From an uncultured Planctomycetia bacterium (GTDB lineage Bacteria; Planctomycetota; UBA8108; UBA1146), in assembly GCA_964605665.1 (NCBI GenBank), contig CAZSDP010000001.1, positions 203,166-267,165 of the forward strand: a stretch of DNA of 64,000 bases, in the 5' to 3' direction. Of this stretch, positions 535 to 53,085 are shown piece after piece; within the stretch, counting starts at the first letter, position 1; every line of letters starts with the position of its first letter. The translations under genes and the position numbers were made by a program. The notes under the pieces were generated by a model. It worked only from the letters and a program-made list of their open reading frames with translations, was not told where the DNA came from and did not search any database.

Positions 535-1686
535 ATGTTGAGCTACACGCTGCGGAGAATTGCCGGAGTGATTCCGGTGATTCTCCTAGTGACACTACTG
601 GTCTTCACGCTGAATGCGTTGATTCCAGGAGACCCGGGACGAATCAGACTGGGTCAGCGCGCTGACCCAGATCAGGTCGCTGCGTGGAATTTCAAGCGTG
701 GCTACGACGCCCCTTTCATTCTGCAGTACCTACGTTATCTAGGGTTCGCTCCATCTCGGGTCTACCTCGATACCGCACTTCCCTCCGGGGAGCTCTCAGA
801 GGAGGCCTATGAGCAAGCGCGCGACCTACAGTCGCGTAATGCGCCACTCGAGGAGTACCAGGAGTTCGCGAAACAGTATCGACTGTCGGTCGATACCGAC
901 TCAGAGTTCGCAAAGAAGAGTCAGCCCCTTCTTTACCAATCGAGATTCCAAGGGGTCCTTCAGGGCAACTTCGGAGAGTCAGATGTCAAGGGGGGGAAGC
1001 GGGTTTTCCCAGTGATCGGGGAGGCGTTCCAGGTCACCCTAAGGCTTGCCTTCGGGTCGATTTTGGTCGCCATTTTTCTCGGCGTCTGCGCCGGAATCTT
1101 GTCCGCGGTCAAAAGCCGTACTTGGATCGACTACACGTCGATGGTTCTCGCCATCATCGGAGTATCCTTGCCCGTCTTCTGGCTCGGAATCCTGATGATC
1201 ATCTACGTTGCGCCAGTCGTTGGTTTACCGAGGAGTGGGTTCAATGACGCGACGCTACTGACGATGACGAAGTCGCTCGTCCTTCCCTGCATCGCCTTGG
1301 GCTTGATCTCGTCTGCAACGATCGCTCGATTGACCCGCTCGGCAATGCTCGACGTCTTGAGCCAAGACTATGTCAGAACCGCCAAGGCGAAAGGGCTCAA
1401 ACCCCGGATTGTCATTCTGAGACACGCTCTCCGCAATGCTTCGATCCCCATCGTGACCGTCGTCGGAAACTCGTTCGGCTATCTGCTCGTCGGAGCGGTC
1501 TTGACCGAGTCGGTGTTCGCCTTGCCCGGTCTCGGAAGAACAATCGTCGATTCCATCGTCCAGCGTGATCGGATGGTGATCACCGGAGGAATCTTGGTGA
1601 TGTCGGTGATTTTCGTCACCGTCAATCTACTCGTCGATCTCAGTTACGGATTCTTCGATCCGAGGGTGCGCCATGGCAGAGGTTGA
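535..1686 (+). CDS. ABC transporter permease, DppB/OppB family, with an extended ~140-aa periplasmic loop
   Basis: Multi-TM protein with the BPD-transporter signature region 'ARLTRSAMLDVLSQDYVRTAKAKGL' (EAA loop). Its end overlaps the next permease start. Confidence 0.9.
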   Translation: MLSYTLRRIAGVIPVILLVTLLVFTLNALIPGDPGRIRLGQRADPDQVAAWNFKRGYDAPFILQYLRYLGFAPSRVYLDTALPSGELSEEAYEQARDLQSRNAPLEEYQEFAKQYRLSVDTDSEFAKKSQPLLYQSRFQGVLQGNFGESDVKGGKRVFPVIGEAFQVTLRLAFGSILVAIFLGVCAGILSAVKSRTWIDYTSMVLAIIGVSLPVFWLGILMIIYVAPVVGLPRSGFNDATLLTMTKSLVLPCIALGLISSATIARLTRSAMLDVLSQDYVRTAKAKGLKPRIVILRHALRNASIPIVTVVGNSFGYLLVGAVLTESVFALPGLGRTIVDSIVQRDRMVITGGILVMSVIFVTVNLLVDLSYGFFDPRVRHGRG

Positions 1687-2584
1687 AAACCAACCACGCA
1701 AAGGTCGTTCGCCAACCCAGTTGGCAGTGCGAAGACTCAAGAAGAACCGCCTCGCGATGGTCGGCCTCGCAGCGGTGTCTGTCGTGGTGATCCTCGGCTT
1801 GTTTCCAGGTCTCCTCGCACCTCACGACTATGCACTGCAGTACCGAGACAATGATTCCTGGCAAGTTCCACCGATCTATTGGCCCGGCTTTTCAGGTGAA
1901 TCGAACCCGTCACATCCCCTCGGAACAGACGAGCTCGGAAGAGACGTCCTCTCGAGATTGATCTATGGAGCTGGAATTTCACTTCGAGTCGGTGTCGTGG
2001 GCACTGCGGTCGCCGTCTTGATCGGAGTTCTCTTCGGAGCCATTGCTGGCTATTTCGCGGGACTGACCGACTGGACAATTTCGCGATTGACCGACACCTT
2101 CTTCGCATTTCCGAGCCTACTCCTCGCCATCGGGATACTTGCCGTCTTCGAAGAGCCAAACGAGACGATTATTTTCGCGGCGCTCGGTCTAGTGGGTTGG
2201 CCAGGGGTCGCCCGAATCGTGCGAGGACAAGTGATCTCACTCCGAAACTCGGAATATGTGCTCGCGGCACAAGCACTCGGACAAAAGAATTCAGCGATCT
2301 TGATTCGCCACATTCTCCCCAATTGCATGGGGCCGATCGTGGTCGTGGCGACACTGATGATCGCAGGTAACATCCTCGCCGAGGCAGGACTGAGCTTCCT
2401 CGGAATCGGCCTCCCTCCTCCCAGTCCATCGTGGGGAAGAATGTTGGTCGACTCCAAGGAGTTTTGGCCAACGATGCCTTGGATGGGGGTCCTACCAGGA
2501 CTCGCCATCAGCTTTACAGTTCTCGGCTTCAATCTCTTTGGGGATGGCCTACGCGATGCGTTCGATCCGAAGATGAGGGCTTAG
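1673..2584 (+). CDS. ABC transporter permease, DppC/OppC family
   Basis: N-terminal OppC_N-like region, six TM segments and an EAA loop 'AAQALGQKNSAILIRHILPN'. Confidence 0.9.
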   Translation: MAEVENQPRKGRSPTQLAVRRLKKNRLAMVGLAAVSVVVILGLFPGLLAPHDYALQYRDNDSWQVPPIYWPGFSGESNPSHPLGTDELGRDVLSRLIYGAGISLRVGVVGTAVAVLIGVLFGAIAGYFAGLTDWTISRLTDTFFAFPSLLLAIGILAVFEEPNETIIFAALGLVGWPGVARIVRGQVISLRNSEYVLAAQALGQKNSAILIRHILPNCMGPIVVVATLMIAGNILAEAGLSFLGIGLPPPSPSWGRMLVDSKEFWPTMPWMGVLPGLAISFTVLGFNLFGDGLRDAFDPKMRA

Positions 2585-40598: not shown

Positions 40599-43500
40599 AT
40601 GAAACAGATCCAACACGATTACCGATTTCTCAAACCCCTGGGATCGGGGGCGGAGGGAGAGGTTTGGTTAGCAGAAGATCTCCGAAGGGACCAACTTCTC
40701 GTCTCCTGGAAACGACTTTTCGACTCTTCAACAGATCGGAAAATCCCGTCCGAGTTTCGAACGTTGCAAGGGATCCAACACCCAGCACTCGCGACGGTTC
40801 TAGAGAGTGGATTACTTCCCGATGGAGCTGGTCGCTGGTTCACAAGCCCATTTTTTCCTGGTCAATCGATCGACAAATTGCCTCGTCCGATAGACCCCGC
40901 TCTCCTCGAGGGGATTATCCGACGGGCTGTCGAAGGGATTGCCGCGCTTCACCGCTCTGGTTACCGCCACGGAGACCTTAAACCGGCTCACTTGCTTTGG
41001 AATGGCCCCCGACCTCTCGATGTACAGTTGATCGACCTGGGGCATGCTGCGCTCCTCGATGATCCCTCTCCGATCAATGCGGGAACGCCCCCGTACGCAG
41101 CTCCCGAATTGTGGAGCTCTTCACCAAAGCCACGCAGAAACACAGATCTCTACGCCCTCGCGATGATTGCCCTCGAAGTACTCAGAGGAGCACCCGTTCA
41201 ACAAAGTGTTGCACTGAGTGAGTGGCGAGATTGGCACCAACATGGCAACCGCGAGAGTGCACTCTCAGGAATAACAGTGCAGATTCGTGGCGCATTTCAC
41301 GAAGTGATCCGTTCCTGTTTGCAGCCCGACCCAGACGACCGTCCGCTTGACGCGGAAGCGATCTTACAGCAACTGCAACCATTCGAACCGACGAAGGAAG
41401 ACTCAGCGGAACAACGGAGTCGTTTCGATGAACTTCCGTTGATCGGTCGGGATCATTGGTTGACCACAAAGTATCAGGAGCTCAACTCTCCCGACGGTCC
41501 AGCCGGATTCCTACTGCTTGGAGAGGCGCGATCAGGACGCACGCGCCTGGTTCGCGCACTTGCCGCTCGCGTCAAATCTCGCGGCGGAATTGCCGTCGAA
41601 GGGGCATCTTCCGATCCGATCCACCAACGCGCACTTTCCACTCTCTCTCAACAGGCCCCCTGTCGTCTCCTCTGGTTCGACAACGTCATGGAACATCACT
41701 TTGAATCGGTCATCCAGGGGTGGAAACGGGTACGTTCTCTCGCTGGCTCCTCCGAGACTCGGCTCATCGCCATCGTCGACCCCTCGGCAAGTTCCGCTGC
41801 TTTGGCTCATCTAAAGAGAAGACTTGCCGGCATCTCTGGTCCAGTAAAAAGTGAGTTCCTGGCGGGGCTCGACCGCACGAGCTTTCACGAGTTGTTTCAA
41901 TATACTCACCAAAGCAAGGGGCGATCCGCTCTCGCCCCAACTGAAATCGATGCTCTATGGAGAAGTAGCGGCGGATCTCCCGCCAGTCTTGCACCCGACC
42001 CACCTCGCCCACCCTCCTCAAGACACGCACAAAGCGTGCTCGGACCTCGCTTGGGAAGCTGGTTGGCGCACATTCCAACTTCGCTGCCTTGGCATGTGCT
42101 CAAAGAAGCCTCTGGCAATTTAGATGAAGAGCTCGAGGATCTGTTTCTTTCTTGCGGATCAGGTGGACCAACCCGAGTTGAGAGTCGAGGTGAAACTCGA
42201 GTTCTTCCTTGGCCAGCGATCTTCCCCGTTGATTCGTCGATTCGACACCTCGCTGAAACTTGGAGGGATCGTGACGCTCCCACCGGACGATGGGCAGCGC
42301 TCTACCTCGAGGCGATTTCCGGAATCGTGATCTCTTCCGAAGCTTGGAGAATTGAGGTCGAGTCAGCGCGGCTCCGCGAGGATCCAGTGTCCCTACTCTC
42401 TCTGGCTCAAATCGCCCCTCAACCCGAACTGAAACATTGGCTCGAGATCGAAGGACGAGCACTGAGCGGAGAAGCGCAGAGGGTGGTCGATGAGTTGCCC
42501 GATCACCCGAGTGAACTCAACTCAGAACAGAGCATGATTTGCTCCACGATTCTGCAAACGACGGCCGGTCCAGCGCGAGCACTTCCATACGCGCTGCATT
42601 CACTGGAACATGCAGACAAGAGCTCTGTCATGGCGAGAAAGATACACGCAGCCTGCATCGCCCATGAATCTGGGGACGGAAAACTCGTAGACTCCTTAGT
42701 TCGTGATCTCGACAATCGATCAGAATTGAGCCCCCATTCCCTTTTCGAACTCGGGTCACTGCACTTACGACGTGGCCGATTCGCCGAGGCTGAGCCTTGC
42801 TTAAGTCAAGCGTTGAAACGATCGCGAGGCGGCGTTTCACCTCCGATCGTTTTGAAGTGCATGTCAGCACTCGCAGGGCACGCTCGTCTCACTGGTGACC
42901 TGCAGACCGCCCTTCAACGGATTCAAGTCGCGCATCGATACGCATCCTTCTTGAAAGTCGAGGAGGAGAATCCGGGATTGGTGGGAAACCTCGGAGCCAT
43001 TCTTCACTCGCTCCGTCGGTCTGACGAAGCCCTCCTTGCCTATCTGCGTGCCAATCAACTGGTGAAACGACGACCCGACCCAAATCTTGAAGTCCATCTG
43101 CAACTTGGGCTCGGTACAGTTCTGCGAGATCGTGGATCTCTGTTTGAAGCTTATCGCGCTCTGCGACGCTCCGTTCGCCTGGCCCGCACCACCAAAATGG
43201 GGCCGATTCTTGCCGCTGCGCTCGGCAACACCGGCGACCTAGAGCTCCTCATGGGAAACCCTCGAGCTTCGGCAATCCACCGATCTGAACTCCTTGAGTT
43301 GGCGGAAAAGGTCGGTGATCCAGCGCTTCTCCGACAAGCGCGCATCGCACTCGCGGCGGCCTCTTTGCACCTCGGCCAATGGAATCGATCGAATACCCTT
43401 TTGGAAGCTGCTGAAGAAGCCAAAGGAGTCGGAGGCTTACGACTTGATTCTTGGAATCTCGTCGTTCGCGCAGAATGGCTAGACCTTCATGGCGACAGAC

Positions 43501-45473
43501 GAGCTGCACTCACTGCGGCTGCAGCCGCTCTGCGCACTGCGTTTAGGAGCGGGCGTTCCTACATGGCAGCGACATCACTCCGCTTGATCTCTCGACAGGT
43601 CGCTAAACTCGGCGATGTTCCCCGTGCAATTCGACTTCTATCACGGGGACTTGAACTCGCTCGTCAAGACCCATGTCCCCCTCTCGCACGAATCCCTCTG
43701 GAACTCGAGAAACTTCACTGGACCGAGTCGCTCAACGGCGAAAGACGAACCGACCTCCGACTGACCCTCGCTAGGAACGCCAGGCAACACGGCTTACTGG
43801 AAGAATTCCTCGTCGCAACAGCACCGATATCAGACCTGCTTCCAGACGACCTAGCCGAAGCTCAAGGTGGTTTACGCGGCCGCCTCCTTCGCCGCTACGG
43901 TCATGCTGGGATCGACGCATTAGAAAAACGAAGAGGTTTCACGATCGCAGCAAGAGTAGCGACCACCCGCATGGAACTCCAAGTGAGCAGCTCCACGATC
44001 GAGGACTCCCCTGAAGAACCCTCACTTGAATTGCCCGAACGGCTTCAGAATCTATCGACCAATCTAGGGGCCGATGGCGCCTTGGCGTTGTCACGTCCGA
44101 TCAGAGCCTGGAGGCATGTCTGTAAGGTCGGCAATATCCAGTCGCCGGAAGCCTCCGATCTGCCGACGACCACAACTCTCTGGCCTGGCTCGACGTGGTC
44201 GCTGTGGATCCCGATACACTCCTCAACCCCTTGCGCCCTATGGTTGCAGGGAAGTGGTCAAGCTCCCGATATCGAATCGCTCGATCTGCGCGGTTGGAAT
44301 GAGACGATCACAGTTCATAGGTTGAAAAGTAATGAAGAGCGGCTCAAGAAGCTCGTCAAGCAACTACGCAGCGATCTCCAAGATTCTCGAGAAGAGAAGA
44401 TATCAGAGCGAGCCCGCCTAGAAACCCAACTGCTGACTCAACGGCTCGAGGTGACTCAAGATGGAGAGAGCCCCTCGGAGAACTCCATTTGGATCTCGGA
44501 ATCCCCCGCGATGAAAGCTCTTGAAGGACTCCTACCTCAGTGGGCGAAGAGTCAGCTACCGATTCTACTTTGGGGAGAAAGTGGAGTCGGTAAAAGCGCT
44601 CTTCTCTCGCGACTCTCACGCCTCTCTGGAGAATCTCCGATCACTGAAAACTGCGCAGCATTGCCCGAGCCTCTTCTCGAAGCTGAACTCTTCGGATACG
44701 TACCTGGAGCCTTTACCGGGGCAGAACAGGAACACAGCGGTCTCTTCGAGCGCGCTGCTGGAAACTCGCTGATTCTCGATCACCTCGATGAACTTCCCCT
44801 CAACCTACAGGCAAAGCTGTTGCGGGTCTTAGACTCAGGTAAGTTCCGACCTCTTGGCGCAGAAGAGGATCGGCAAGTTCAGTTTCGATTGATCGCCACC
44901 CTCAGGGATGATCCGCAAACCCTGATCGAACAGAATCGTCTGCGCCTCGATCTGTACTATCGACTTCAAGGTATCGAAGGGCATGTCCCTCCTCTTCGCC
45001 GCCGCAGGGAAGAGATCGGCCCTCTTTTGGAAGCGTATCTGAGTGAGGCTGCTCGAATTCAGGTCCGGCCACAGCCAACGATCCACCCACAGGCACTTTC
45101 TATCCTTGAGGCTGCAGACTGGCCTGGGAATGTCAGAGAATTGGTGAATGCCACACAACGCTGGCTGATCCAATCGGTCGATACCCTTCGCCCTGAGGAC
45201 CTAGACCGGGAATTCGTGCAGACTCCTGCAGTGGGTGATCCGTCTGGAAACACCGCATTCACAGAGAGAAAGGACGCAGCATCAACGACCGTCGCCACCT
45301 GGTCGGGAGAGGACTGGCGAACAGAGACGGAGAGATTCCACCGCGGTCTTCTTCGGGCCGCTCTCGATCGCTTCGCTGGGAATCAAACTCAGACCGCTCA
45401 AGCTCTCGGAATCAGTAGAAGACACCTGCAAAATCTGCTCAACAAACTTGATCTCAGGGAGCAAGAGGAATGA
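40599..45473 (+). CDS. Giant fusion protein: Ser/Thr protein kinase – degenerate STAND/AAA_16 NTPase – TPR array – σ54-interaction AAA+ domain – Fis-type HTH
   Basis: Kinase: Gly loop 'GSGAEGEV', 'VSWK', catalytic loop 'YRHGDLKPAHLLW', 'DLG', 'PPYAAPE'. STAND-like: 'LLGEARSGRT'. C-terminal enhancer-binding module: Walker A 'GESGVGKS', 'GAFTGA', 'LDLYYRL…PPLRRRREEI', HTH 'QTAQALGISRRHLQNLLNKL'. Confidence 0.8.
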   Translation: MKQIQHDYRFLKPLGSGAEGEVWLAEDLRRDQLLVSWKRLFDSSTDRKIPSEFRTLQGIQHPALATVLESGLLPDGAGRWFTSPFFPGQSIDKLPRPIDPALLEGIIRRAVEGIAALHRSGYRHGDLKPAHLLWNGPRPLDVQLIDLGHAALLDDPSPINAGTPPYAAPELWSSSPKPRRNTDLYALAMIALEVLRGAPVQQSVALSEWRDWHQHGNRESALSGITVQIRGAFHEVIRSCLQPDPDDRPLDAEAILQQLQPFEPTKEDSAEQRSRFDELPLIGRDHWLTTKYQELNSPDGPAGFLLLGEARSGRTRLVRALAARVKSRGGIAVEGASSDPIHQRALSTLSQQAPCRLLWFDNVMEHHFESVIQGWKRVRSLAGSSETRLIAIVDPSASSAALAHLKRRLAGISGPVKSEFLAGLDRTSFHELFQYTHQSKGRSALAPTEIDALWRSSGGSPASLAPDPPRPPSSRHAQSVLGPRLGSWLAHIPTSLPWHVLKEASGNLDEELEDLFLSCGSGGPTRVESRGETRVLPWPAIFPVDSSIRHLAETWRDRDAPTGRWAALYLEAISGIVISSEAWRIEVESARLREDPVSLLSLAQIAPQPELKHWLEIEGRALSGEAQRVVDELPDHPSELNSEQSMICSTILQTTAGPARALPYALHSLEHADKSSVMARKIHAACIAHESGDGKLVDSLVRDLDNRSELSPHSLFELGSLHLRRGRFAEAEPCLSQALKRSRGGVSPPIVLKCMSALAGHARLTGDLQTALQRIQVAHRYASFLKVEEENPGLVGNLGAILHSLRRSDEALLAYLRANQLVKRRPDPNLEVHLQLGLGTVLRDRGSLFEAYRALRRSVRLARTTKMGPILAAALGNTGDLELLMGNPRASAIHRSELLELAEKVGDPALLRQARIALAAASLHLGQWNRSNTLLEAAEEAKGVGGLRLDSWNLVVRAEWLDLHGDRRAALTAAAAALRTAFRSGRSYMAATSLRLISRQVAKLGDVPRAIRLLSRGLELARQDPCPPLARIPLELEKLHWTESLNGERRTDLRLTLARNARQHGLLEEFLVATAPISDLLPDDLAEAQGGLRGRLLRRYGHAGIDALEKRRGFTIAARVATTRMELQVSSSTIEDSPEEPSLELPERLQNLSTNLGADGALALSRPIRAWRHVCKVGNIQSPEASDLPTTTTLWPGSTWSLWIPIHSSTPCALWLQGSGQAPDIESLDLRGWNETITVHRLKSNEERLKKLVKQLRSDLQDSREEKISERARLETQLLTQRLEVTQDGESPSENSIWISESPAMKALEGLLPQWAKSQLPILLWGESGVGKSALLSRLSRLSGESPITENCAALPEPLLEAELFGYVPGAFTGAEQEHSGLFERAAGNSLILDHLDELPLNLQAKLLRVLDSGKFRPLGAEEDRQVQFRLIATLRDDPQTLIEQNRLRLDLYYRLQGIEGHVPPLRRRREEIGPLLEAYLSEAARIQVRPQPTIHPQALSILEAADWPGNVRELVNATQRWLIQSVDTLRPEDLDREFVQTPAVGDPSGNTAFTERKDAASTTVATWSGEDWRTETERFHRGLLRAALDRFAGNQTQTAQALGISRRHLQNLLNKLDLREQEE

Positions 45474-46200
45474 GTTGCAGATCTTACCGGGAACTTTCGT
45501 TCACACTTCGCCGTCGAAAACGTTGCCTCCACTTGACATATCCCTCGGCAACGCGCCGTAACCCGCCCAACTAAATCGCCACAAACCACCAAATAAACAG
45601 CACTTACAACACCTTCACGATGTCTCTTCGAGGATTGGAACGGCGGGTGCTTTGCTTCACTCGGCTGTAAGAGACCTGTGAGGAGGACAGGGGTGGCCGC
45701 TGGAATCTGGGCTTACTTCGTCGACACTCGCTATGGTGTCGCGAAGGAAGCTCGGGGAGGACTCCGGCGCTGCCCCCTCCTTTTTGCCTTCGATTCCTTA
45801 AATAGATAAACAACCCGACTTGGAGCAGCGGCTTTCGCTCCTTCATTCACCACCTGTCAATGAGTCCCTTCTTGACCGCCGCTACTTGCCTAGATACCCT
45901 CGAACTGTAGCCCTGTAACGATTCAGGGCGCATCATGGGTTCAAAAGAGAGAATCTGCCCGCTGGGACTCCTGAGGTGTGAAGCCTGTGAAATCGGGAGT
46001 TCGTTGACTTCACCGAATCGTGACGGTCTTAACTGGGTGAAGCGAGGCCGATGAGGTATCCAGCGGGGCAGTCCGCTCGTCTTTTCAACTCGATTGGACT
46101 TGAACTCGATGTGACGTGGAGGAGCGCTCTCGGATCACGCAAGAGATCCCCTGTGACCTCCACTTGAGATTGACGTACCTCGATGTGGGAGAGGAATACT

Positions 46201-47427
46201 ATGGCTCAGCCACTCGATTGCCAAAGTCAACCCACTCCAAAATCTCCACGACGCTGGTACCCAAAGAGCTTTGCCCCGCTCGCCGCACTTCTGATTCTTC
46301 TCTCAGCCACCGCGAAGATCGAAGCAAATCACTTTGTTCGTGGTGACGTGAATTTTGATGGATTTGTCACCATCGCTGATGCTTCTCGATTGATCAGAGC
46401 AACCATCCTCGGGGACACCACCATTCAGTTTGCTTGCTCAGATAGTGCGGATGTCGATGACAACGGGATTGTCGAGTTTCTTGATGCGGTTCAGCTGATC
46501 ACATTTCTTTTTGGCGCCGACGGAGCAGGAGCACTTCCACATCCTTATCCTCAACCGGGGGAGGACCAAACCACGGATAGCTTGCCAAATTGCACGGGGG
46601 TCCATACGCCCTGCGTCGGCTCGAATTGTCCAAATGGGTCAGAGATCCCCCACATCTTCTTCTTGAGCCAAGAATCGGATAACCCCCTCGAACTGATGTT
46701 GGGCGCTGGCGGGCCAACCACAGCGATACCGATTCGGATGACCTCGATCGACCCGGTGGAGGGATTCACTCTCAGCATGATCTTTGATCCCCAGCAGATC
46801 GCCTCGATAGATATCGACTTTGAGGGGGGGGTCGCAGCGGAATACAACGCGGATCTCCGAATCTCCCATGTCAGCTCCGCGCATCCTGGCCATGTCTATG
46901 CCTACGTCGTCATGGAAATGTTCCCCCCTTTCACCGAGGAGGCGATCCCCGCCGGATTCGAACTTCTTTTGGGCCACCTGCTCGTCGAAGTTCAAGAGTC
47001 TGTCCCTGTTGGCGCTACTGTTGAAATCGGATTTGAGACTCTCCCACCCGTCGGTCAAGAACCACCGATGCGAAACGAGGTTGTTCAAGGAGGAGGATTC
47101 GGCATTCGCTACCCGATCACCCACACCAGATCATTCTTGGTCGAGCACCCTCATAACCTCTTCATTCGCGGTGACGTTAATCGGGATGGCTACGTCAACA
47201 TTGGAGATGCGATCCCACTACTACAGTTCTTGTTCCTCAACCTTCAGGATGCTCCTCTCTGCTTTGACGCTTGCGATGTCAATGACTCAGGTTCGATCGA
47301 CTTGGGAGACTCCATCACGCTGCTGATGACCCTCTTCCAGCCCCAGCTTGGAATCCAACCTGCTGCCCCATTCCCATATCCATCAGTCGACCCGACCACC
47401 GATTCACTACCCTGCGAGAATTTCTAG
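46201..47427 (+). CDS. Secreted protein with two dockerin-type Ca-binding repeat pairs flanking a β-rich middle domain
   Basis: Signal-like 'LAALLILLSATAKIEA'. Dockerin repeats 'GDVNFDGFVTIAD…DVDDNGIVEFLD' and 'GDVNRDGYVNIGD…DVNDSGSIDLGD'. Each is followed by a 'PFPYP…DPTTDSLP(N)C' tail. The ORF track start at 46183 is an alternative. Confidence 0.6.
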   Translation: MAQPLDCQSQPTPKSPRRWYPKSFAPLAALLILLSATAKIEANHFVRGDVNFDGFVTIADASRLIRATILGDTTIQFACSDSADVDDNGIVEFLDAVQLITFLFGADGAGALPHPYPQPGEDQTTDSLPNCTGVHTPCVGSNCPNGSEIPHIFFLSQESDNPLELMLGAGGPTTAIPIRMTSIDPVEGFTLSMIFDPQQIASIDIDFEGGVAAEYNADLRISHVSSAHPGHVYAYVVMEMFPPFTEEAIPAGFELLLGHLLVEVQESVPVGATVEIGFETLPPVGQEPPMRNEVVQGGGFGIRYPITHTRSFLVEHPHNLFIRGDVNRDGYVNIGDAIPLLQFLFLNLQDAPLCFDACDVNDSGSIDLGDSITLLMTLFQPQLGIQPAAPFPYPSVDPTTDSLPCENF

Positions 47428-47870
47428 AGATTCTCCTGACCTAACTTCGCCGCATCCCAACCTCTCCTCTGTCTCCACCTCGTCAGTTGGGGACCGCAGA
47501 ACTGCTTGAGGTTCCCCACTCACTGCGGATTTCACGATTCTAGAACCACCCCTTAAGTCACGACTCAGCTCCTGCCTTTCGTTCAGATCTCAAAGAGGAT
47601 TTCCTCCTCTATTCAACGGGTGGTCTGAACTTCTCTGGAACCCAACAGCCCCCGGCCACACATTCACCAAGGACCGGAAAAATTGGGGCCTATCGAGAAG
47701 CAATCAGGTGGCAACTTGTGATTCTGCAAACGTTCGTGAAGAGCGTTGAGGATGATCACTCGACAGAATCAGCTCTCCTATCACTAGGTCGGGAGCTCGA
47801 GGGTGAGTCGTGCACGGCATGGGTCAGCATTTCGGATGAGATCGGTCCGATTCCTAGGCGAGAGCGAAAC

Positions 47871-47907
47871 AAAAAAAAAAGAGGCGCAATCGGGGAAATT
47901 GCGCCCC
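47871..47907 (-). terminator. Rho-independent terminator on the minus strand (8-bp GC-rich stem plus T10)
   Basis: Minus strand reads gggcgcaat-ttccccg-attgcgcc-tc-tttttttttt. Confidence 0.65.
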
Positions 47908-48122
47908 CTCGGAAAGAAATGAAGCAAGCAGAGCGTGCTCTACCGAGCCTTGCTCTGTGCAGTCGCGAGAGCGAGAGCCACCGCTCCGGCGACAATCTGC
48001 CCAGTCACCACTTTAGATAGGCAACTGAGCGTTTCCCCCCGAAGGGGAAAAGGTCAGAAAGGAAGAGGCGCCTAGCCAAGGGCTGGCCCCATACTCCTCC
48101 TCTCCTGTCCCTAAAGAGCCCA
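47871..48122 (-). ncRNA. Candidate ~250-nt small RNA (σ54-type promoter to intrinsic terminator). No ORF ≥60 aa; a 5-codon mini-ORF sits behind a strong SD.
   Basis: Region is ORF-free and lower in GC. Promoter motif upstream, terminator downstream. The internal 'ggaggaggagtATGgggccagcccttggcTAG' encodes only MGPALG. No tmRNA, RNase P or SRP motifs recognised. Confidence 0.2.
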
Positions 48123-48131
48123 CCACATACT

Positions 48132-48149
48132 AAGCACGCGAGGTGCCAA
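48132..48149 (-). promoter_or_regulatory. σ54-type −24/−12 promoter-like element (minus strand: tTGGCACctcgcgTGCTt)
   Basis: GG and GC dinucleotides are separated by exactly 10 nt. TGGCAC is exact; the −12 region reads GTGCT against consensus TTGCW. Two GC palindromes (GGGGGACCCCC at ~48191–48201; GGAGGACCTCC at ~48344–48354) lie upstream in the minus-strand sense and could be activator sites. Confidence 0.3.
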
Positions 48150-48329
48150 AACGGCCCACACAACCTAACTTATTATATATCAGGGCCTTAGGGGGACCCC
48201 CTTCCGCCAACAAACAGCCCGACCGGGTAGATTTTAACCGCCCAGTAACCGGGAACACCTAAGCTTCGACAGAAGAAAGACTTACGGATCCGGCCAAAAA
48301 CTTACCGGCCGTACCTCGGAGGGCCTAAT

Positions 48330-48626
48330 CTATAACCGGTCTCGGAGGACCTCCAGGAGGGCGAGTCTTTGTCCGGCCTCAACTCGCGCTCCCTCGCCAA
48401 TCCAGTGCTCCAGAACTGTGCCATCATATGGAGACGAGATCACCACAGAGCCGCTAGAAGCAAGGACAACGGCGAGAGGCTCCCCAGATCGGGCCTGCTC
48501 CCCTTCGCCGACGAGCCACTCCAAAAGCACCCACTCCCTGCGCTCGAGGTCATCGGGTACTTTGACAAATTGTTGGTCTTTGGTGGCCCCCATCGGTACT
48601 TCTCCTCTTGCTGAGGACATCCTCAC
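48330..48626 (-). CDS. Small lipoyl/biotinyl-domain-like protein lacking the modifiable lysine
   Basis: 'VKVPDDLERREWVLLEWLVGEGEQARSGEPLAVVLASSGSVVISSPYDGTVLEHWIGEGARVEAGQRLALLE' aligns by eye to a lipoyl-domain hybrid fold. The 'ETDKA' position reads 'ASSGS'. Confidence 0.45.
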   Translation of the reverse strand: MRMSSARGEVPMGATKDQQFVKVPDDLERREWVLLEWLVGEGEQARSGEPLAVVLASSGSVVISSPYDGTVLEHWIGEGARVEAGQRLALLEVLRDRL

Positions 48627-48674: not shown

Positions 48675-49061
48675 TCAGGGCGCACTCGACTCAAGGCGCT
48701 TCTTGCACTCGATACAGTGGGTAGCAAAGGGAATCGCCTCCAAGCGCGCATCACCAATCGGACCTTCACACTCTTCGCAGGTGGTATATGTTCCATCGTC
48801 GATGCGGTGGATCGCTCGCTGGATTTGCTCCAAAGTTGCCCCGCTAGTCCGAAATTGTTCAAAAACAACGGCATCGGCACTGGTATCGCCAGCGAGGTCC
48901 TCAAGATCCGCGATGTGATGACGATCTTCTTGTGCACTCAGGGAGTCGAGCCCTGTCTCGACGTCTTCACTCAAGAGCCGAAGCTGATCAACGAGGCGTT
49001 CTCTGACCTTTTGCAGGTGATCTTCCATCTTGCAGTCTCCCGATAAGGGGCAGTCTCCCAC
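48675..49061 (-). CDS. DksA/TraR-family C4 zinc-finger protein
   Basis: N-terminal coiled coil plus 'CEECEGPIGDARLEAIPFATHCIECK' (CxxC-N17-CxxC). Confidence 0.75.
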   Translation of the reverse strand: MGDCPLSGDCKMEDHLQKVRERLVDQLRLLSEDVETGLDSLSAQEDRHHIADLEDLAGDTSADAVVFEQFRTSGATLEQIQRAIHRIDDGTYTTCEECEGPIGDARLEAIPFATHCIECKKRLESSAP

Positions 49062-49261
49062 GGTTGCTTGAGCCCACCATTAACCCACTGGCAAACGCTG
49101 GTGAATCACAAGTTGCTCCGGACTCTCACGCCGAGCCTCCGAACCAACAACTGCATGAGAATACCATCTTCAAATCCTCCTGGCCGAAATCGCCATCACT
49201 TCTTCGGCTCAGAATCTCAGCAGCCAGCGAAATTTACCGCTGAGATCGACCCGATTGTGGC

Positions 49262-49308
49262 AAAAAAAAAACGGTCCCGATCGCTCGATAAAGGAGCGAT
49301 CGGGACCG
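49262..49308 (-). terminator. Strong Rho-independent terminator on the minus strand (14-bp perfect stem plus T10)
   Basis: Minus strand reads cggtcccgatcgctc-ctttatc-gagcgatcgggaccg-tttttttttt, directly after the stop of the 49332..50693 gene. Confidence 0.75.
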
Positions 49309-49331
49309 TGAATCGGGCGTTAGAGACTCTC

Positions 49332-50693
49332 TTACGGACAGACTGTCGAGGTCAAACAACCAACGCCATCCGCATCCCCACTCGGATCGGGTCCGCAATC
49401 GGGGAAGGGCGCCGCAGGCTCGGGGCCCATCGTGAACAAGTAATTCAAAAGCGTAATCGGATCGGACAGATCCACCCCGCCGCTATCATTGACATCGGCA
49501 GTGTCCAAACATGCGGGCTCAGGCCCCATGGTGAACAGGTAATTTAAGAGGAAGATGGGATCGGACAGATCGATCGTCAAAGATCCGTTGACGTCACCTC
49601 GTACAAAGACTCCTCCGGTGACCCCCGATTCAATTTCAAAAGAGCCGTCGATCACGATCGGTAGAACGCTTGACTCTCCAATACTGATGGCGATCGCCAC
49701 TGGCGGTGCAGGAGCGGGAGGAGAGAGATCGGAAGTGAACGACAAAGGAGTCAAACCGACTGTCGCTGTGGCCGAAACGTCATAGGACGTGACGATAATC
49801 TCGTGCTCAACTCCGACCGGCAAAACGCTGACGGAGCCGCCAGCCATCGGAGACATGATTGCTCCAACCGTAATACCAGTCCCGCCGCTCGGAGCGAGAT
49901 CAGCAAAGAAGAATCCAGCTCCCGCGCCTCCATTGAGCGCTTGCACAGCGGCACCCTGATCCACAGATGTCGCCGTCAGTGAAGAACCATCGTGCAAAAC
50001 GCCCAGACTAAAGCCGTGAACGTCGAGCGAGTTCGTCATCAGTAACGGTACGCTCGCAACTTCCCCTTGGGGCACCGCCGCAATCGGGGCAAATGAAAGC
50101 TCAAATGGAACCACGTCGATATCGATGATGGCGTCTTCTATCGTTGGGAAGAGGCTCGACCCCGAAAGCGGGCCCGCCCCGGGAACGACAACAGTCTGGG
50201 GTGCGGGCTGTCCCGGAATACCAGCATTGTCGCAATAGCTAATTGTCGCGGTGGTTCCGTTTGGGCCGACCAAGGCGTAATCGATATTGACGACCTCATA
50301 GTCCAAGCCTGGGGGCAACTGCGCACAAGATACGAAACAAATGATCACACCTTGGCTCACCCCTCCGGCGTCAGTGTCATCTCCGCCGTAGAAGTTGATC
50401 TCATTGAAATCAACCGGGCTTCCATTCTTGGCGACTTCGCAAGTCGCGCCGGTCGTCGCGCTGATCGGCTGTACCAGGTTGAAGTCATGACAGACTCCGA
50501 GTGACCACCCACCCAGCGGGTCAGCCCCGTCGAGAACATCGAGGAGCGCAACCAGGCTGATTTCCTCACCAGAGGAACCGCTCAATCCCTGGGGAAACCT
50601 CAAGGTGTAGTTTTCACCTTGGGCCAACGCCTGCGAGGGTAAAAGGAGGGAAAGGCAGATGAGCAGTAGTGAAGCTCCGATAATGCGACACAT
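49332..50693 (-). CDS. Secreted β-rich protein with a C-terminal dockerin-type repeat pair (paralogue of 46201..47427)
   Basis: Signal peptide 'MCRIIGASLLLICLSLLLPSQALAQ'. Internal duplicated 'GxSLGVxHD' domains. C-terminal 'RGDVNGSLTIDLSDPIFLLNYLF…DVNDSGGVDLSDPITLLNYLF' then 'PAAPFPDCGPDP'. Confidence 0.6.
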   Translation of the reverse strand: MCRIIGASLLLICLSLLLPSQALAQGENYTLRFPQGLSGSSGEEISLVALLDVLDGADPLGGWSLGVCHDFNLVQPISATTGATCEVAKNGSPVDFNEINFYGGDDTDAGGVSQGVIICFVSCAQLPPGLDYEVVNIDYALVGPNGTTATISYCDNAGIPGQPAPQTVVVPGAGPLSGSSLFPTIEDAIIDIDVVPFELSFAPIAAVPQGEVASVPLLMTNSLDVHGFSLGVLHDGSSLTATSVDQGAAVQALNGGAGAGFFFADLAPSGGTGITVGAIMSPMAGGSVSVLPVGVEHEIIVTSYDVSATATVGLTPLSFTSDLSPPAPAPPVAIAISIGESSVLPIVIDGSFEIESGVTGGVFVRGDVNGSLTIDLSDPIFLLNYLFTMGPEPACLDTADVNDSGGVDLSDPITLLNYLFTMGPEPAAPFPDCGPDPSGDADGVGCLTSTVCP

Positions 50694-50842
50694 TCCAATT
50701 CCTCGTTTCTCTTCAGCTGTAGAGGAGGATCGAGTCGATCTCTCCAGCCCCTCAGCTCTCAGATGCTTGAACTCTCCAGAATTAGAGGTCCTCAAGTGAT
50801 TTCAAACTCCGAAATTGGGTCCGAGCGTGACCCAAGCGGCCA

Positions 50843-50880
50843 TTATAGCACAATTTGCCCCAATTCACCCTCTCCCGCTG
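50843..50880 (-). promoter_or_regulatory. Candidate σ70 promoter with an extended −10 (TGcTATAAT) for the dockerin-protein gene
   Basis: Minus strand reads 'ggcaaattgtgcTATAATgg'. Gives a ~140-nt 5' UTR. Confidence 0.3.
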
Positions 50881-51080
50881 TACAGAAACAAGACGCTGTT
50901 GAGCAGGTCGCGCCTCAGCCTCGAATCCCCTCGGTCCTGATCAGATTGTCTAAAAGCCAGACGAGAGGTTCATGATCCGCCCCATCCCACCACGCCACAA
51001 TCGGTCGCCAGAGGGCCGTTCTCGCCGATCCACCCGATTAGGCCGCCAATGGAACGGAAATCTCACCCAAAGTAGAGGGT

Positions 51081-51096
51081 AGGCCCCTCCCTTGCC
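51081..51096 (+). promoter_or_regulatory. Weak σ54-like −24/−12 element (aGGCCCctcccTTGCc) ~45 nt upstream of the 51140 gene
   Basis: GG-N10-GC spacing is correct and TTGC is exact. The −24 region matches GGC only. Confidence 0.2.
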
Positions 51097-51139
51097 ACTG
51101 TGACTGGTGACGGGCGAAGTCCCGTAGGGAGGATGAAGA

Positions 51140-51826
51140 ATGAACTCGGAAGCCAACCAAAGCTCAGACAATCCTGGAGACCTCTCGACCCTTCAAAAGG
51201 TGAGCCGCGTTGAACCGGTCGGCGAGCTGAAGGAGAAGGGAATCTCGAGGGTTCAGCTGATCAGCCGCAGCCAATTTGAGACGGTCATCAGAGATGCGGT
51301 TGCGAGAGAGATTCTCAATATTCTCGACCAGGTCGAGCTCTCAGCTGAGGAACAAGAAGTCCTTACAGAGCGAGCAATCGCAAGACTCTCTGGAGAAGTT
51401 CCACAGATAGAAGCCAAACCATCAGAGTCGAACAGTTCCAACCCCTCAAGTGAAGAAGTGACTCCTTCCCCTTCGACAACTTCTGACTTCGACCCAACGG
51501 CGTTCAAGCAGAAGATCATCGAAGAAGTAGGCGGCTTAGTTTCTCAGAACTGGAGAGAAGAACTAAAGTCCGCTCAAGTCTCTCAATCAAACCATATCGG
51601 TCGACTCGAAGACCGCATCGATTCTCTTATGAATGCGCTCGACCAAATTGAAAAACTGATGGAGAAGTCCGATTCCACGCCTGCTGACGAGACTCACTCA
51701 ACTCAATCAAATGGCACGAGCAACGGAACTCTAGGTGGAATGAAAAATGAGCTCCTTGAGCAGCTCTTCGATGCGAACTTAGTACTCCGAGAATTGGAGG
51801 CTGGCGAAGACCTCGACGGAGAATAA
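51140..51826 (+). CDS. Acidic Ser/Glu-rich hypothetical protein (candidate partner of the downstream actin homologue)
   Basis: 228 aa. Low-complexity acidic 'SESNSSNPSSEEVTPSPSTTSDFDP' and a coiled-coil-like C-terminal half. SD 'gggagga' upstream. Confidence 0.45.
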   Translation: MNSEANQSSDNPGDLSTLQKVSRVEPVGELKEKGISRVQLISRSQFETVIRDAVAREILNILDQVELSAEEQEVLTERAIARLSGEVPQIEAKPSESNSSNPSSEEVTPSPSTTSDFDPTAFKQKIIEEVGGLVSQNWREELKSAQVSQSNHIGRLEDRIDSLMNALDQIEKLMEKSDSTPADETHSTQSNGTSNGTLGGMKNELLEQLFDANLVLRELEAGEDLDGE

Positions 51827-51972
51827 ACAGAAAGTGACGACTGAGAATACCTCTGGACTTCGGTTCACATGTTGGTGAATTGCTCCCCACCAACGTCTTA
51901 CCGAAAACGGACAATCCAAATTTGAAATTCAGGAGCCGCACCACAAGGTCGCGATAGAAGAAGAGGAGATCG

Positions 51973-53085
51973 ATGAGCACCAAGACCCAAGGAAATGGCA
52001 GCAAACCAGCTTCGAAAACTCGAAAGGCCTCTACGGCCAAAGCGAACACCAAGACGGAGATTCTTCATGTCGGAATCGACCTTGGTACCTCACGATCTGC
52101 TGTTGCGACCTCAACGGGAGTCAGAGACTTGATTGCGAGCGTTGTCGGCTGGCCAAAAGACACGATCTCCGCCAAGGCATTCGGAAAAGGAACCCAATTT
52201 GGTGGTGACGTCCTGAAAAACCGGCTCGCACTCGATGTTTGCTGGCCACTCGCTGACGGAAATCTCATCTTCACCGACCTCGAAGGTAAAGAGCAAACCC
52301 GAGCACGTCGAGCAGCAGAAGAGCTGATGAAAGAGATCAAGCGGCTAGCCCAACCAGCTAAGAACGAATCGATCTATGCCGTGATCGGAGCCCCCGCTGA
52401 GGCCACTCGAGAGAACAAGCAGGCAATCATCGAAATAGCTCAAAAAGCCGGCATTGACGCGGTCATGGTCGTTTCCGAGCCATTTGCTGTGGCATACACT
52501 GTCGATGCCTTGATCGATTCAATCGTCATCGATATCGGAGCCGGAACGATCGATCTCTGCCGAATGTCAGGCACATTACCCACCGAGGAAGATCAGGTCA
52601 CCGTCTTCAAGGCTGGAAACTACATCGATCAAGAAATTGCAAATCGAGTCCGCGAAAAGTATGGAGACGCTCAGTTTTCCATCAACATGATTAAGCTAGC
52701 CAAGGAACGGTTCTCTTCCGTTACCCAAAACGCCCAAAGAGCTCTGGTGACCTTCCCCGTGGATGGTGTACCGACCGAGCTCGACATCACCAAAGAAGTC
52801 CGCGAGGCGGTAAATTTGATTGTCCCTGAGGTTGTTGAGGGAATTCGAAAGCTCGTCGCGACCTTTGATCCTGAGTTCCAAGAGCGAATTCGAAACCGGG
52901 TCTTCGTATCCGGAGGTGGATCACTGATCTACGGAATTCGCGAGGCGATCGAAATTGGAATGCAGGAGATTGGTGGAGGCAAAGTCAGCCTCGTCGATGA
53001 GCCAGTTTACGCCGGTGCTGACGGAGCGCTCAAACTTGCCCAAGAGATGCCTGCGAAGTTCTGGGCCAAACTCAAGAGCAACTAA
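51973..53085 (+). CDS. Actin-family ATPase, MamK-like (distinct from MreB) with a basic N-terminal tail
   Basis: 'ILHVGIDLGTSRSAV' (phosphate 1), 'SVVGWPKD', 'YAVIGAPAEATRENKQAIIEIAQKAGIDAVMVVSEPFAVAY', 'IVIDIGAGTIDLCRMSG' (phosphate 2), 'VFVSGGGS'. The order and spacing match, by recollection, MamK-type actins rather than MreB. N-terminal 'KPASKTRKASTAKANTK'. Confidence 0.65.
   Translation: MSTKTQGNGSKPASKTRKASTAKANTKTEILHVGIDLGTSRSAVATSTGVRDLIASVVGWPKDTISAKAFGKGTQFGGDVLKNRLALDVCWPLADGNLIFTDLEGKEQTRARRAAEELMKEIKRLAQPAKNESIYAVIGAPAEATRENKQAIIEIAQKAGIDAVMVVSEPFAVAYTVDALIDSIVIDIGAGTIDLCRMSGTLPTEEDQVTVFKAGNYIDQEIANRVREKYGDAQFSINMIKLAKERFSSVTQNAQRALVTFPVDGVPTELDITKEVREAVNLIVPEVVEGIRKLVATFDPEFQERIRNRVFVSGGGSLIYGIREAIEIGMQEIGGGKVSLVDEPVYAGADGALKLAQEMPAKFWAKLKSN

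Follow-up and report, generated by a model that had tools for sequence, protein, structure and literature searches.

A conserved non-coding RNA gene with a predicted sigma-54 promoter in uncultured marine Planctomycetota

Introduction

In a 64,000-nucleotide stretch of DNA from an uncultured Planctomycetia bacterium (contig CAZSDP010000001.1; this whole 64-kb stretch is called the window here), the open reading frame (ORF) list and Pfam matches leave a gap at 47428-48330 between convergent genes. The question is whether this gap is an empty spacer or the site of a gene whose product is an RNA. A preliminary description had proposed an independently transcribed, sigma-54-dependent small RNA (sRNA) on the minus strand, and comparison with relatives strongly supports this, as the RNA, its promoter and its terminator are co-conserved in about 40 loci and the helices covary. 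It is very probable that 48125..47871 on the minus strand is a stand-alone gene for a conserved, sigma-54-driven non-coding RNA. The evidence throughout is sequence comparison, and by this measure the RNA, the promoter, the upstream sites and the terminator are conserved jointly as an independent unit.

The convergent arrangement was as previously described, with a dockerin gene on the plus strand and lipoyl-like and DksA-like genes on the minus strand, all recognised by Pfam. A lower GC content of the region had also been claimed, and this is not the case (0.52-0.58 within the region versus 0.51-0.59 beyond it).

Results and Discussion

A conserved block with its own promoter and terminator

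The predicted transcript is about 255 nt long (47871..48125, minus strand) and is supported by conservation, by a covariance model and by the z-score of its fold. Its 5′ end is placed from the promoter and the onset of conservation, and its 3′ end lies within a T10 tract. The transcript folds better than its shuffled versions (-120.6 kcal/mol, z = -4.08).

The lipoyl-like protein encoded next to the gap has only two relatives among 5.8 billion proteins, and the contigs carrying an 83%-identical relative are syntenic with the window. When the intergenic regions were aligned, the block that starts immediately past the -12 element and extends to the T tract was 93.8% identical to locus L001, while identity in the flanks was 54.8% upstream (228 columns) and 34.0% downstream (483 columns). 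The RNA thus surpasses the neighbouring protein gene in conservation (93.8% for the RNA versus 83% for the protein). More distant syntenic contigs, reached through DksA homologues of 54-74% identity, still carry the RNA element. Conservation is strongest at the 3′ end of the RNA, where about 50 nt are almost invariant, including the loop of the terminator hairpin.

On the minus strand, a sigma-54-type -24/-12 promoter, TGGCAC-CTCGC-GTGC, is found at 48134..48148 (TGGCAC at 48148..48143, five spacer bases, GTGC at 48137..48134), with GG and GC 10 nt apart and close to the consensus TGGCAC-N5-TTGC. The predicted +1 is at about 48122-48124. The RNA begins to be conserved at (A)GUGGGCUCUUUGGGACAGG, 10-13 nt past the GC, which is the position expected for a sigma-54 start. 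A match to TGG[CT]A[CT]-N5-NTGC is present at the same distance in 38 of the 41 copies that are not cut at the 5′ end (43 were found), for which we estimate a chance rate of about 0.006 per copy. The exceptions are two copies that end at a contig edge, L007, which ends inside the RNA before the invariant 18-mer described below, and L035 and L043, in which TGGCCC-N5-GTGC and TGGAAC-N5-TCGC were read by eye, both of them retaining GG-N10-GC. The five bases of the promoter spacer vary freely and TGGCA and TGC are fixed. The near-consensus element reported upstream of the terminator is thus confirmed, and we infer that transcription would start from the sigma-54 promoter at 48148..48134.

The intrinsic terminator occupies 47871..47910 on the minus strand and consists of a GC-rich hairpin, GAGGGGGCGCAAU-UUCCCCG-AUUGCGCCUC (47910..47881), directly followed by T10 (47880..47871). 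It begins about 225 nt past the promoter element, and the promoter and terminator are about 250 nt apart. The terminator and its T10 tract had been correctly recognised and are conserved, but the stem, described as 8 bp, is 13-14 bp (14 pairs were scored by the terminator scan). The stem covaries among relatives; one position is seen as A-U, C-G and U-A and another as C-G and U-A, while the loop CAUUUCCCCGAUG is invariant among the short forms of the RNA. When relatives were compared for the promoter and terminator as a pair, the pair was found to be conserved.

In isolation such motifs mean little. Sites with at most one mismatch to TGGCAC-N5-TTGC number 5 in the window against 2.9 expected, so that a single match is not beyond chance, and terminator-like sites occur at background frequency (3 found in 3 kb versus 3.5 expected). 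No motif reaches significance by itself, and it is conservation in relatives that lifts the feature far above chance.

The DksA-like and lipoyl-like genes share the strand of the RNA and lie about 200 nt upstream of it, and no terminator is predicted between the lipoyl stop codon and the RNA. It could thus be a 3′ untranslated region or a processed fragment of that operon, or it could be transcribed from a sigma-70-like TATAAT, which does exist on the minus strand at 48177..48172, with the -24/-12 match being fortuitous. We consider this very unlikely. Most members of the family have no DksA-lipoyl genes upstream, yet in them the RNA is still accompanied by the GG-N10-GC and by upstream palindromes at fixed spacing, and the roughly 200 nt from the lipoyl stop to the +1 are 55% identical to L001, compared with 94% for the RNA. 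The TATAAT had been thought to make the promoter assignment ambiguous. It reads TGTAAT, AATCAC or CATCAC in relatives and was rejected as a promoter; a scan for sigma-70 promoters with a -35 hexamer reported nothing at this site.

Conserved activator sites upstream of the promoter

Transcription from a sigma-54 promoter raises the question of where an activator would bind. When the 330 nt upstream of 18 short-form genes were aligned, three blocks at fixed positions were seen, and a matrix made from the first block recovered the other two, which jointly describe a 19-bp palindrome, GYGGYYA-N5-TRRCCRC. The matrix was built from short-form relatives only, with no long-form site included, so that the window and eight other long-form loci could serve as held-out sources. 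In all nine, two of the three best matches in the entire sequence fell 110-270 bp upstream of the RNA, near -111 and -178 in the clade of the window and from -133 to -269 in the others.

In the window, predicted activator site 1, GCGGTTAAAATCTACCCGG on the minus strand (48223..48241), scores 17.6 bits and ranks first of about 64,000 positions, with its centre 111 bp upstream of the conserved RNA start; in L001, L012, L016 and L026 the top-scoring sites likewise fall at -110 to -112. Predicted site 2, CCGGTAAGTTTTTGGCCGG (48290..48308), scores 13.5 bits and ranks third in the window, and its centre is 178 bp upstream of the conserved RNA start, a position (-177/-178) also occupied by a site in L001, L012 and L016. 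Enhancer-like sites are thus present within the range of about 80-250 bp upstream, and the layout of these predicted sites is typical of enhancer-binding-protein sites at sigma-54 promoters.

Between the two sites lies a further conserved element at a fixed position, TAAG-N17-CTTA (TAAGTCTTTCTTCTGTCGAAGCTTA, 48260..48284, minus strand). Its core TAA-N19-TTA is found at this place in 22 of 28 distinct upstream regions, while shuffled sequences averaged 2.3 such regions and never exceeded 7. A DNA-bending protein or a second regulator may bind there.

Two other GC palindromes, GGGGGACCCCC (48191..48201) and GGAGGACCTCC (48344..48354), had been put forward as binding sites for the activator. Both exist, but neither is conserved even in the closest relative, the conserved sites being those at 48223-48241 and 48290-48308, and we estimate that about one palindrome of the 5-N-5 type is expected by chance per 900 bp. 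Counting of exact dyads was only weakly informative because the half-sites drift between lineages; the position matrix worked.

The matrix also matched 1565-1583 (10.1 bits) and 1679-1697 (15.2 bits), 114 bp apart, at the junction of the long ORFs 535..1686 and 1673..2584. These matches are probably due to chance, because they are inside long ORFs and no -24/-12 element was seen nearby.

Range and forms of the RNA family

The family was searched with an exact 25-nt pattern made of the 18-mer CTTGCTTCATTTCTTTCC (47928..47911), which lies just before the terminator, and GNNGNGG. This recovered 28 loci in contigs of the Genome Taxonomy Database (GTDB), taken as one genome per species, and 14 in metagenome contigs, against a chance expectation that we estimate at about 0.07. 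The genome loci are nearly all from metagenome-assembled genomes of marine Planctomycetota (UBA1146, TMED53, MCMED-G47 and others). The range of the family is known solely through the exact pattern, so more diverged members would have escaped. The 18-mer was seen to be identical in L001, L012, L016 and L017 before it was used as a search pattern; in the loci retrieved later its identity is by construction.

A covariance model was then made from 19 short-form members, leaving out the window and all long forms. It matches the window at 48125..47874 on the minus strand with 83.5 bits (E=5e-23), as the sole match in the 64 kb, and it also matches all 14 of the metagenome loci. Two forms can be distinguished: a short form of about 170 nt and a long form of about 220-280 nt with extra internal hairpins, to which the RNA of the window belongs. 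The RNA is single-copy per locus.

No family reached its gathering threshold when the window region and one short-form relative were scanned with Rfam 15. The best scores were for tfoR (18.1 and 17.7 bits against a gathering threshold of 70), covering little beyond the terminator, and all others were at most 17 bits; in these scans CcsR1 scored 13.4 bits against 65.3, on the terminator only. ARAGORN found no tRNA or tmRNA. The predicted RNA represents a previously uncatalogued family from uncultured marine Planctomycetota, new but of a known kind, and it could enter the RNA family databases.

A covarying structure and invariant elements

A structure consisting of helix P1 enclosing P2 and P3, followed by P4, the single-stranded 18-mer and the terminator, was tested on the short-form alignment. 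In this five-helix structure 89.4% of cells are paired, compared with 47-57% when the partners are slid by 1-3 columns, and in 19 of 44 pairs both partners have changed. Covariation scores 0.299 versus 0.158 for shuffles, with none of 500 shuffles reaching it, a count that is not a probability because the sequences are related to one another; the slid controls agree with it in direction. For the long forms, with only five distinct sequences, the internal helices are less secure.

At the 5′ end there is a conserved box, GGUGGGCUCUUUAGGGACAGGAGA (48100..48123, minus strand), whose purine run is the 5′ strand of P1. Within it, all 19 short forms share GGGCUCUUUGGGACAGG-GAG, with one G/A position in the purine run as the only exception, and this position covaries with the C/U of the CUCCCC strand (13 G-C and 6 A-U). 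A junction GCAAG and a second GCAA are also invariant in the short forms, the second being placed in the P3 loop by individual folds.

The pyrimidine-rich 18-mer (CUUGCUUCAUUUCUUUCC, 47911..47928, minus strand), identical in every copy seen, is a candidate seed for pairing. It is unpaired in the structure specified for the short forms, although part of it is paired in the RNAalifold short-form consensus. Its complement, GGAAAGAAAUGAAGCAAG, resembles a ribosome-binding site followed by AUG.

Coding potential

As conserved blocks of this size can also encode small proteins, both strands were considered. On the sense strand, an SD-like (Shine-Dalgarno-like) sequence, GGAGAGGAGGAG, precedes ATG GGG CCA GCC CTT GGC TAG (MGPALG, 6 codons), and the predicted transcript contains a UUCCCC-UUCG-GGGGAA hairpin. 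Both had been pointed out previously and both are present, but the ORF is not conserved. Its product of 6 aa is extended to 12 aa in L001, where the stop is lost, and most members lack it altogether, so that it was rejected as a leader peptide. On the opposite strand, an ORF starts from the ATG at 47919 (plus strand; MKQAERAL...), within the complement of the 18-mer, where GGAAAGAAATGAAG resembles a ribosome-binding site and start codon, and gene callers annotated ORFs of 150-159 aa on the antisense strand in three relatives. This candidate was rejected as well: the antisense ORFs have nothing in common but MKQ, stop after 7-68 codons and run through the conserved 5′ box in three different frames.

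The strong SD-like sequence before the sense ATG and the start-like antisense sequence are what a small protein would have in its favour. Against these stand the alignment indels of 1, 2 and 4 nt, the compensatory changes in the helices, the lack of Pfam matches and the failure of either reading frame to persist among members, and we give almost no credence to a small protein encoded by the conserved block. No ORF is conserved on either strand of the RNA family. The remaining ORFs of the gap (100 aa on the plus strand and 79 aa on the minus strand) have no Pfam match and are not conserved, in agreement with the earlier impression that the gap holds no real-looking ORF. With a conserved promoter and terminator of its own and no conserved ORF on either strand, the element has the features of an independent non-coding transcription unit.

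Mode of action

The RNA is probably a signal-controlled regulatory RNA, because it combines a sigma-54 promoter, conserved activator sites, an invariant 18-nt stretch and a strong terminator. A sigma-54- and activator-dependent sRNA that acts in trans by base pairing is the reading we consider likely. An enhancer-binding protein on the 19-bp palindromes, about 111 and 178 bp upstream, would remodel the sigma-54 holoenzyme, so that the RNA would be made only when the activator is bound, and transcription would stop at the strong intrinsic terminator. The RNA would then act in trans, its CU-rich 18-mer, probably unpaired, pairing with the purine-rich ribosome-binding regions of mRNAs. The invariant UUUCCCC of the terminator loop may pair in the same way, and a set of genes would thereby be placed under the signal of the activator.

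Pairing with translation-initiation regions is favoured because the 18-mer is pyrimidine-rich and unpaired in the tested short-form structure, its complement is like a ribosome-binding site and start codon, and a second C-rich motif is present in the terminator loop. That the CU-rich stretch itself is what pairs is favoured only narrowly.

Several results weigh against this reading or parts of it. A search of the 64 kb for an RpoN box was negative; the organism probably uses sigma-54, because the window encodes a sigma-54 activator with the GAFTGA motif. Most family members have no activator gene near the RNA within the DNA examined. In the long forms, RNAalifold pairs the 18-mer with the 5′ purine-rich box, and the seed may not be free in the window's own RNA. 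When the window was searched for the seed complement with up to 3 mismatches, it matched only itself, and none of 266 candidate start regions stood out in duplex energy (best -16.0, mean -9.1, sd 2.6 kcal/mol). A search for exact 11-mer seed complements across all loci (about 0.49 Mb) gave no convincing target site. Lastly, the invariance of all 18 nt, together with that of the terminator loop, exceeds the needs of most seeds and would fit a protein-binding site too.

In four closely related loci (L019, L028, L030 and L041), on the rodA side of the RNA and on its strand, there is an 11-nt exact seed complement, AAGAAATGAAG, about 270 nt downstream. It is most simply explained as an inherited chance match.

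The same sigma-54-driven RNA could instead bind or sequester a protein, as GlmY, CrcZ and CsrB/RsmZ do, in which case the CU-rich stretch, the terminator loop and the GGA-rich 5′ box would be protein-recognition sites. The near-invariance of about 50 nt at the 3′ end, with the hairpin loop included, is more than a typical seed shows, and it would be accounted for in this way, as would the several GGA motifs (GGGACAGGAGAGGAGGAG) in the 5′ region of the window RNA, the invariant GCAAG junction and the invariant GCAA of the short forms, assigned to the P3 loop in individual folds. That no mRNA target was found in the DNA searched would also be expected, but this failure says little, since the target search covered 64 kb of one genome. 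Against protein binding, the RNA lacks an array of repeated binding motifs like those of CsrB or CrcZ, the short forms have no more than one or two GGA motifs, and the complement of the 18-mer reads as a ribosome-binding site with an AUG, which is what C/U-rich seeds usually target. Protein binding is a possible but rather unlikely alternative to base pairing in trans.

Relation to known sigma-54-dependent and C-rich small RNAs

A close parallel in layout is GlmY/GlmZ of Enterobacteria, driven by sigma-54 and GlrR, which also has a stand-alone sRNA gene, a sigma-54 promoter, an intrinsic terminator and, about 100-250 bp upstream, several palindromic activator sites with a further conserved element lying between them. 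That intervening position is occupied by IHF sites in glmY. The RNA described here differs in that it has no similarity in sequence or structure, reaches no Rfam threshold and belongs to another phylum. GlmY works by protein mimicry on RapZ.

In CrcZ/CrcY and NrsZ of Pseudomonas and Pxr of Myxococcus, a non-coding RNA gene is likewise gated by a sigma-54 activator, which answers a physiological signal. The present RNA differs from these by the absence of CA-rich repeats of the CrcZ type, by the lack of similarity in sequence or fold and by its phylum.

With the Qrr RNAs of Vibrio (sigma-54 and LuxO), it would share being a trans-acting sRNA dependent on sigma-54 and an activator, with a Rho-independent terminator. 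Qrr RNAs end in a Rho-independent terminator and have a long single-stranded pairing region that is absolutely conserved (PMC10162802); the invariant 18-mer may be its counterpart here. The present family differs from Qrr in size (170-280 nt versus about 100 nt), sequence and fold, has one copy per locus and matches no Rfam family.

Its pyrimidine-rich motifs, UUUCCCC in the loop and the probably single-stranded CAUUUCUUUCC, would suit pairing with Shine-Dalgarno sequences, as in the C-rich-seed sRNAs RoxS/RsaE of Firmicutes and CcsR of Rhodobacter, but the promoter type and the architecture are different.

To our knowledge, almost no regulatory RNAs have been described in Planctomycetota, and no sigma-54-dependent sRNA of this phylum was found in a full-text literature search. 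The locus offers a complete, testable regulatory module of activator sites, sigma-54 promoter, structured RNA with an invariant 18-nt stretch and terminator, which is conserved in many uncultivable marine lineages. The palindrome provides a DNA motif for finding the rest of the activator regulon, and the 18-mer a seed for genome-wide target prediction.

Candidate activator and genomic neighbourhood

Across the family, the RNA is located downstream of mreB, a gene for a 228-aa protein and a gene for a dockerin-like 487-aa protein, and in most members it is convergent with rodA-pbp2. This cell-shape neighbourhood is seen at 48675-53085 in the window and in loci L020-L045. The DksA-lipoyl pair, a second dockerin gene and a kinase-activator gene adjoin the RNA only in the clade of the window and in L033, L035 and L036; the clade has inserted these genes into the cell-shape neighbourhood.

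The kinase-activator gene (40599..45473, plus strand), recognised by Pfam and by motif, encodes a 1624-aa fusion of an N-terminal Ser/Thr kinase, MalT-like tetratricopeptide repeats, a Sigma54_activat AAA+ domain with GAFTGA at residue 1370 and a Fis-type helix-turn-helix, an unusual coupling of a eukaryote-like kinase to sigma-54 transcription. As it is linked to the RNA only in the clade of the window and a few other loci, it is a candidate regulator and not an established one. A bolder proposal is that this kinase-fused activator binds the palindromes and drives a clade-wide riboregulator of envelope or cell-shape genes, which would be an undescribed signalling route; we regard this as speculative and improbable. 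If it were true, a riboregulator embedded between mreB and rodA-pbp2 would be the first functional sRNA regulon in Planctomycetota.

Next to the RNA in the window, a dockerin-domain protein gene (46183..47427, plus strand) lies on one side, and on the other a gene for a biotin/lipoyl-like small protein (48330..48626, minus strand) and one for a DksA/TraR-like zinc-finger protein (48675..49061, minus strand) form a two-gene unit; all three were assigned by Pfam. There is no same-strand gene downstream of the RNA terminator. The spacer at 47428-47870 (440 nt) could not be aligned with relatives (34% identity), and no conserved feature was found in it. In L001 (6725-6800), and also in L002-L004, the sequence right after the RNA terminator carries 3-5 tandem copies of a 16-nt unit, CAGTCGATGTCGGGCA, whose copy number varies among contigs, and the spacer of the window is unrelated to it.

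Another hairpin is present on the minus strand of the window at 49271-49309, where a perfect 16-bp stem (ACGGTCCCGATCGCTC...GAGCGATCGGGACCGT) is followed by T9. The only response to it in Rfam was a chance miRNA-like match. It is directly 3′ of the 487-aa dockerin-like gene and is a strong terminator dividing this gene from the DksA-lipoyl pair.

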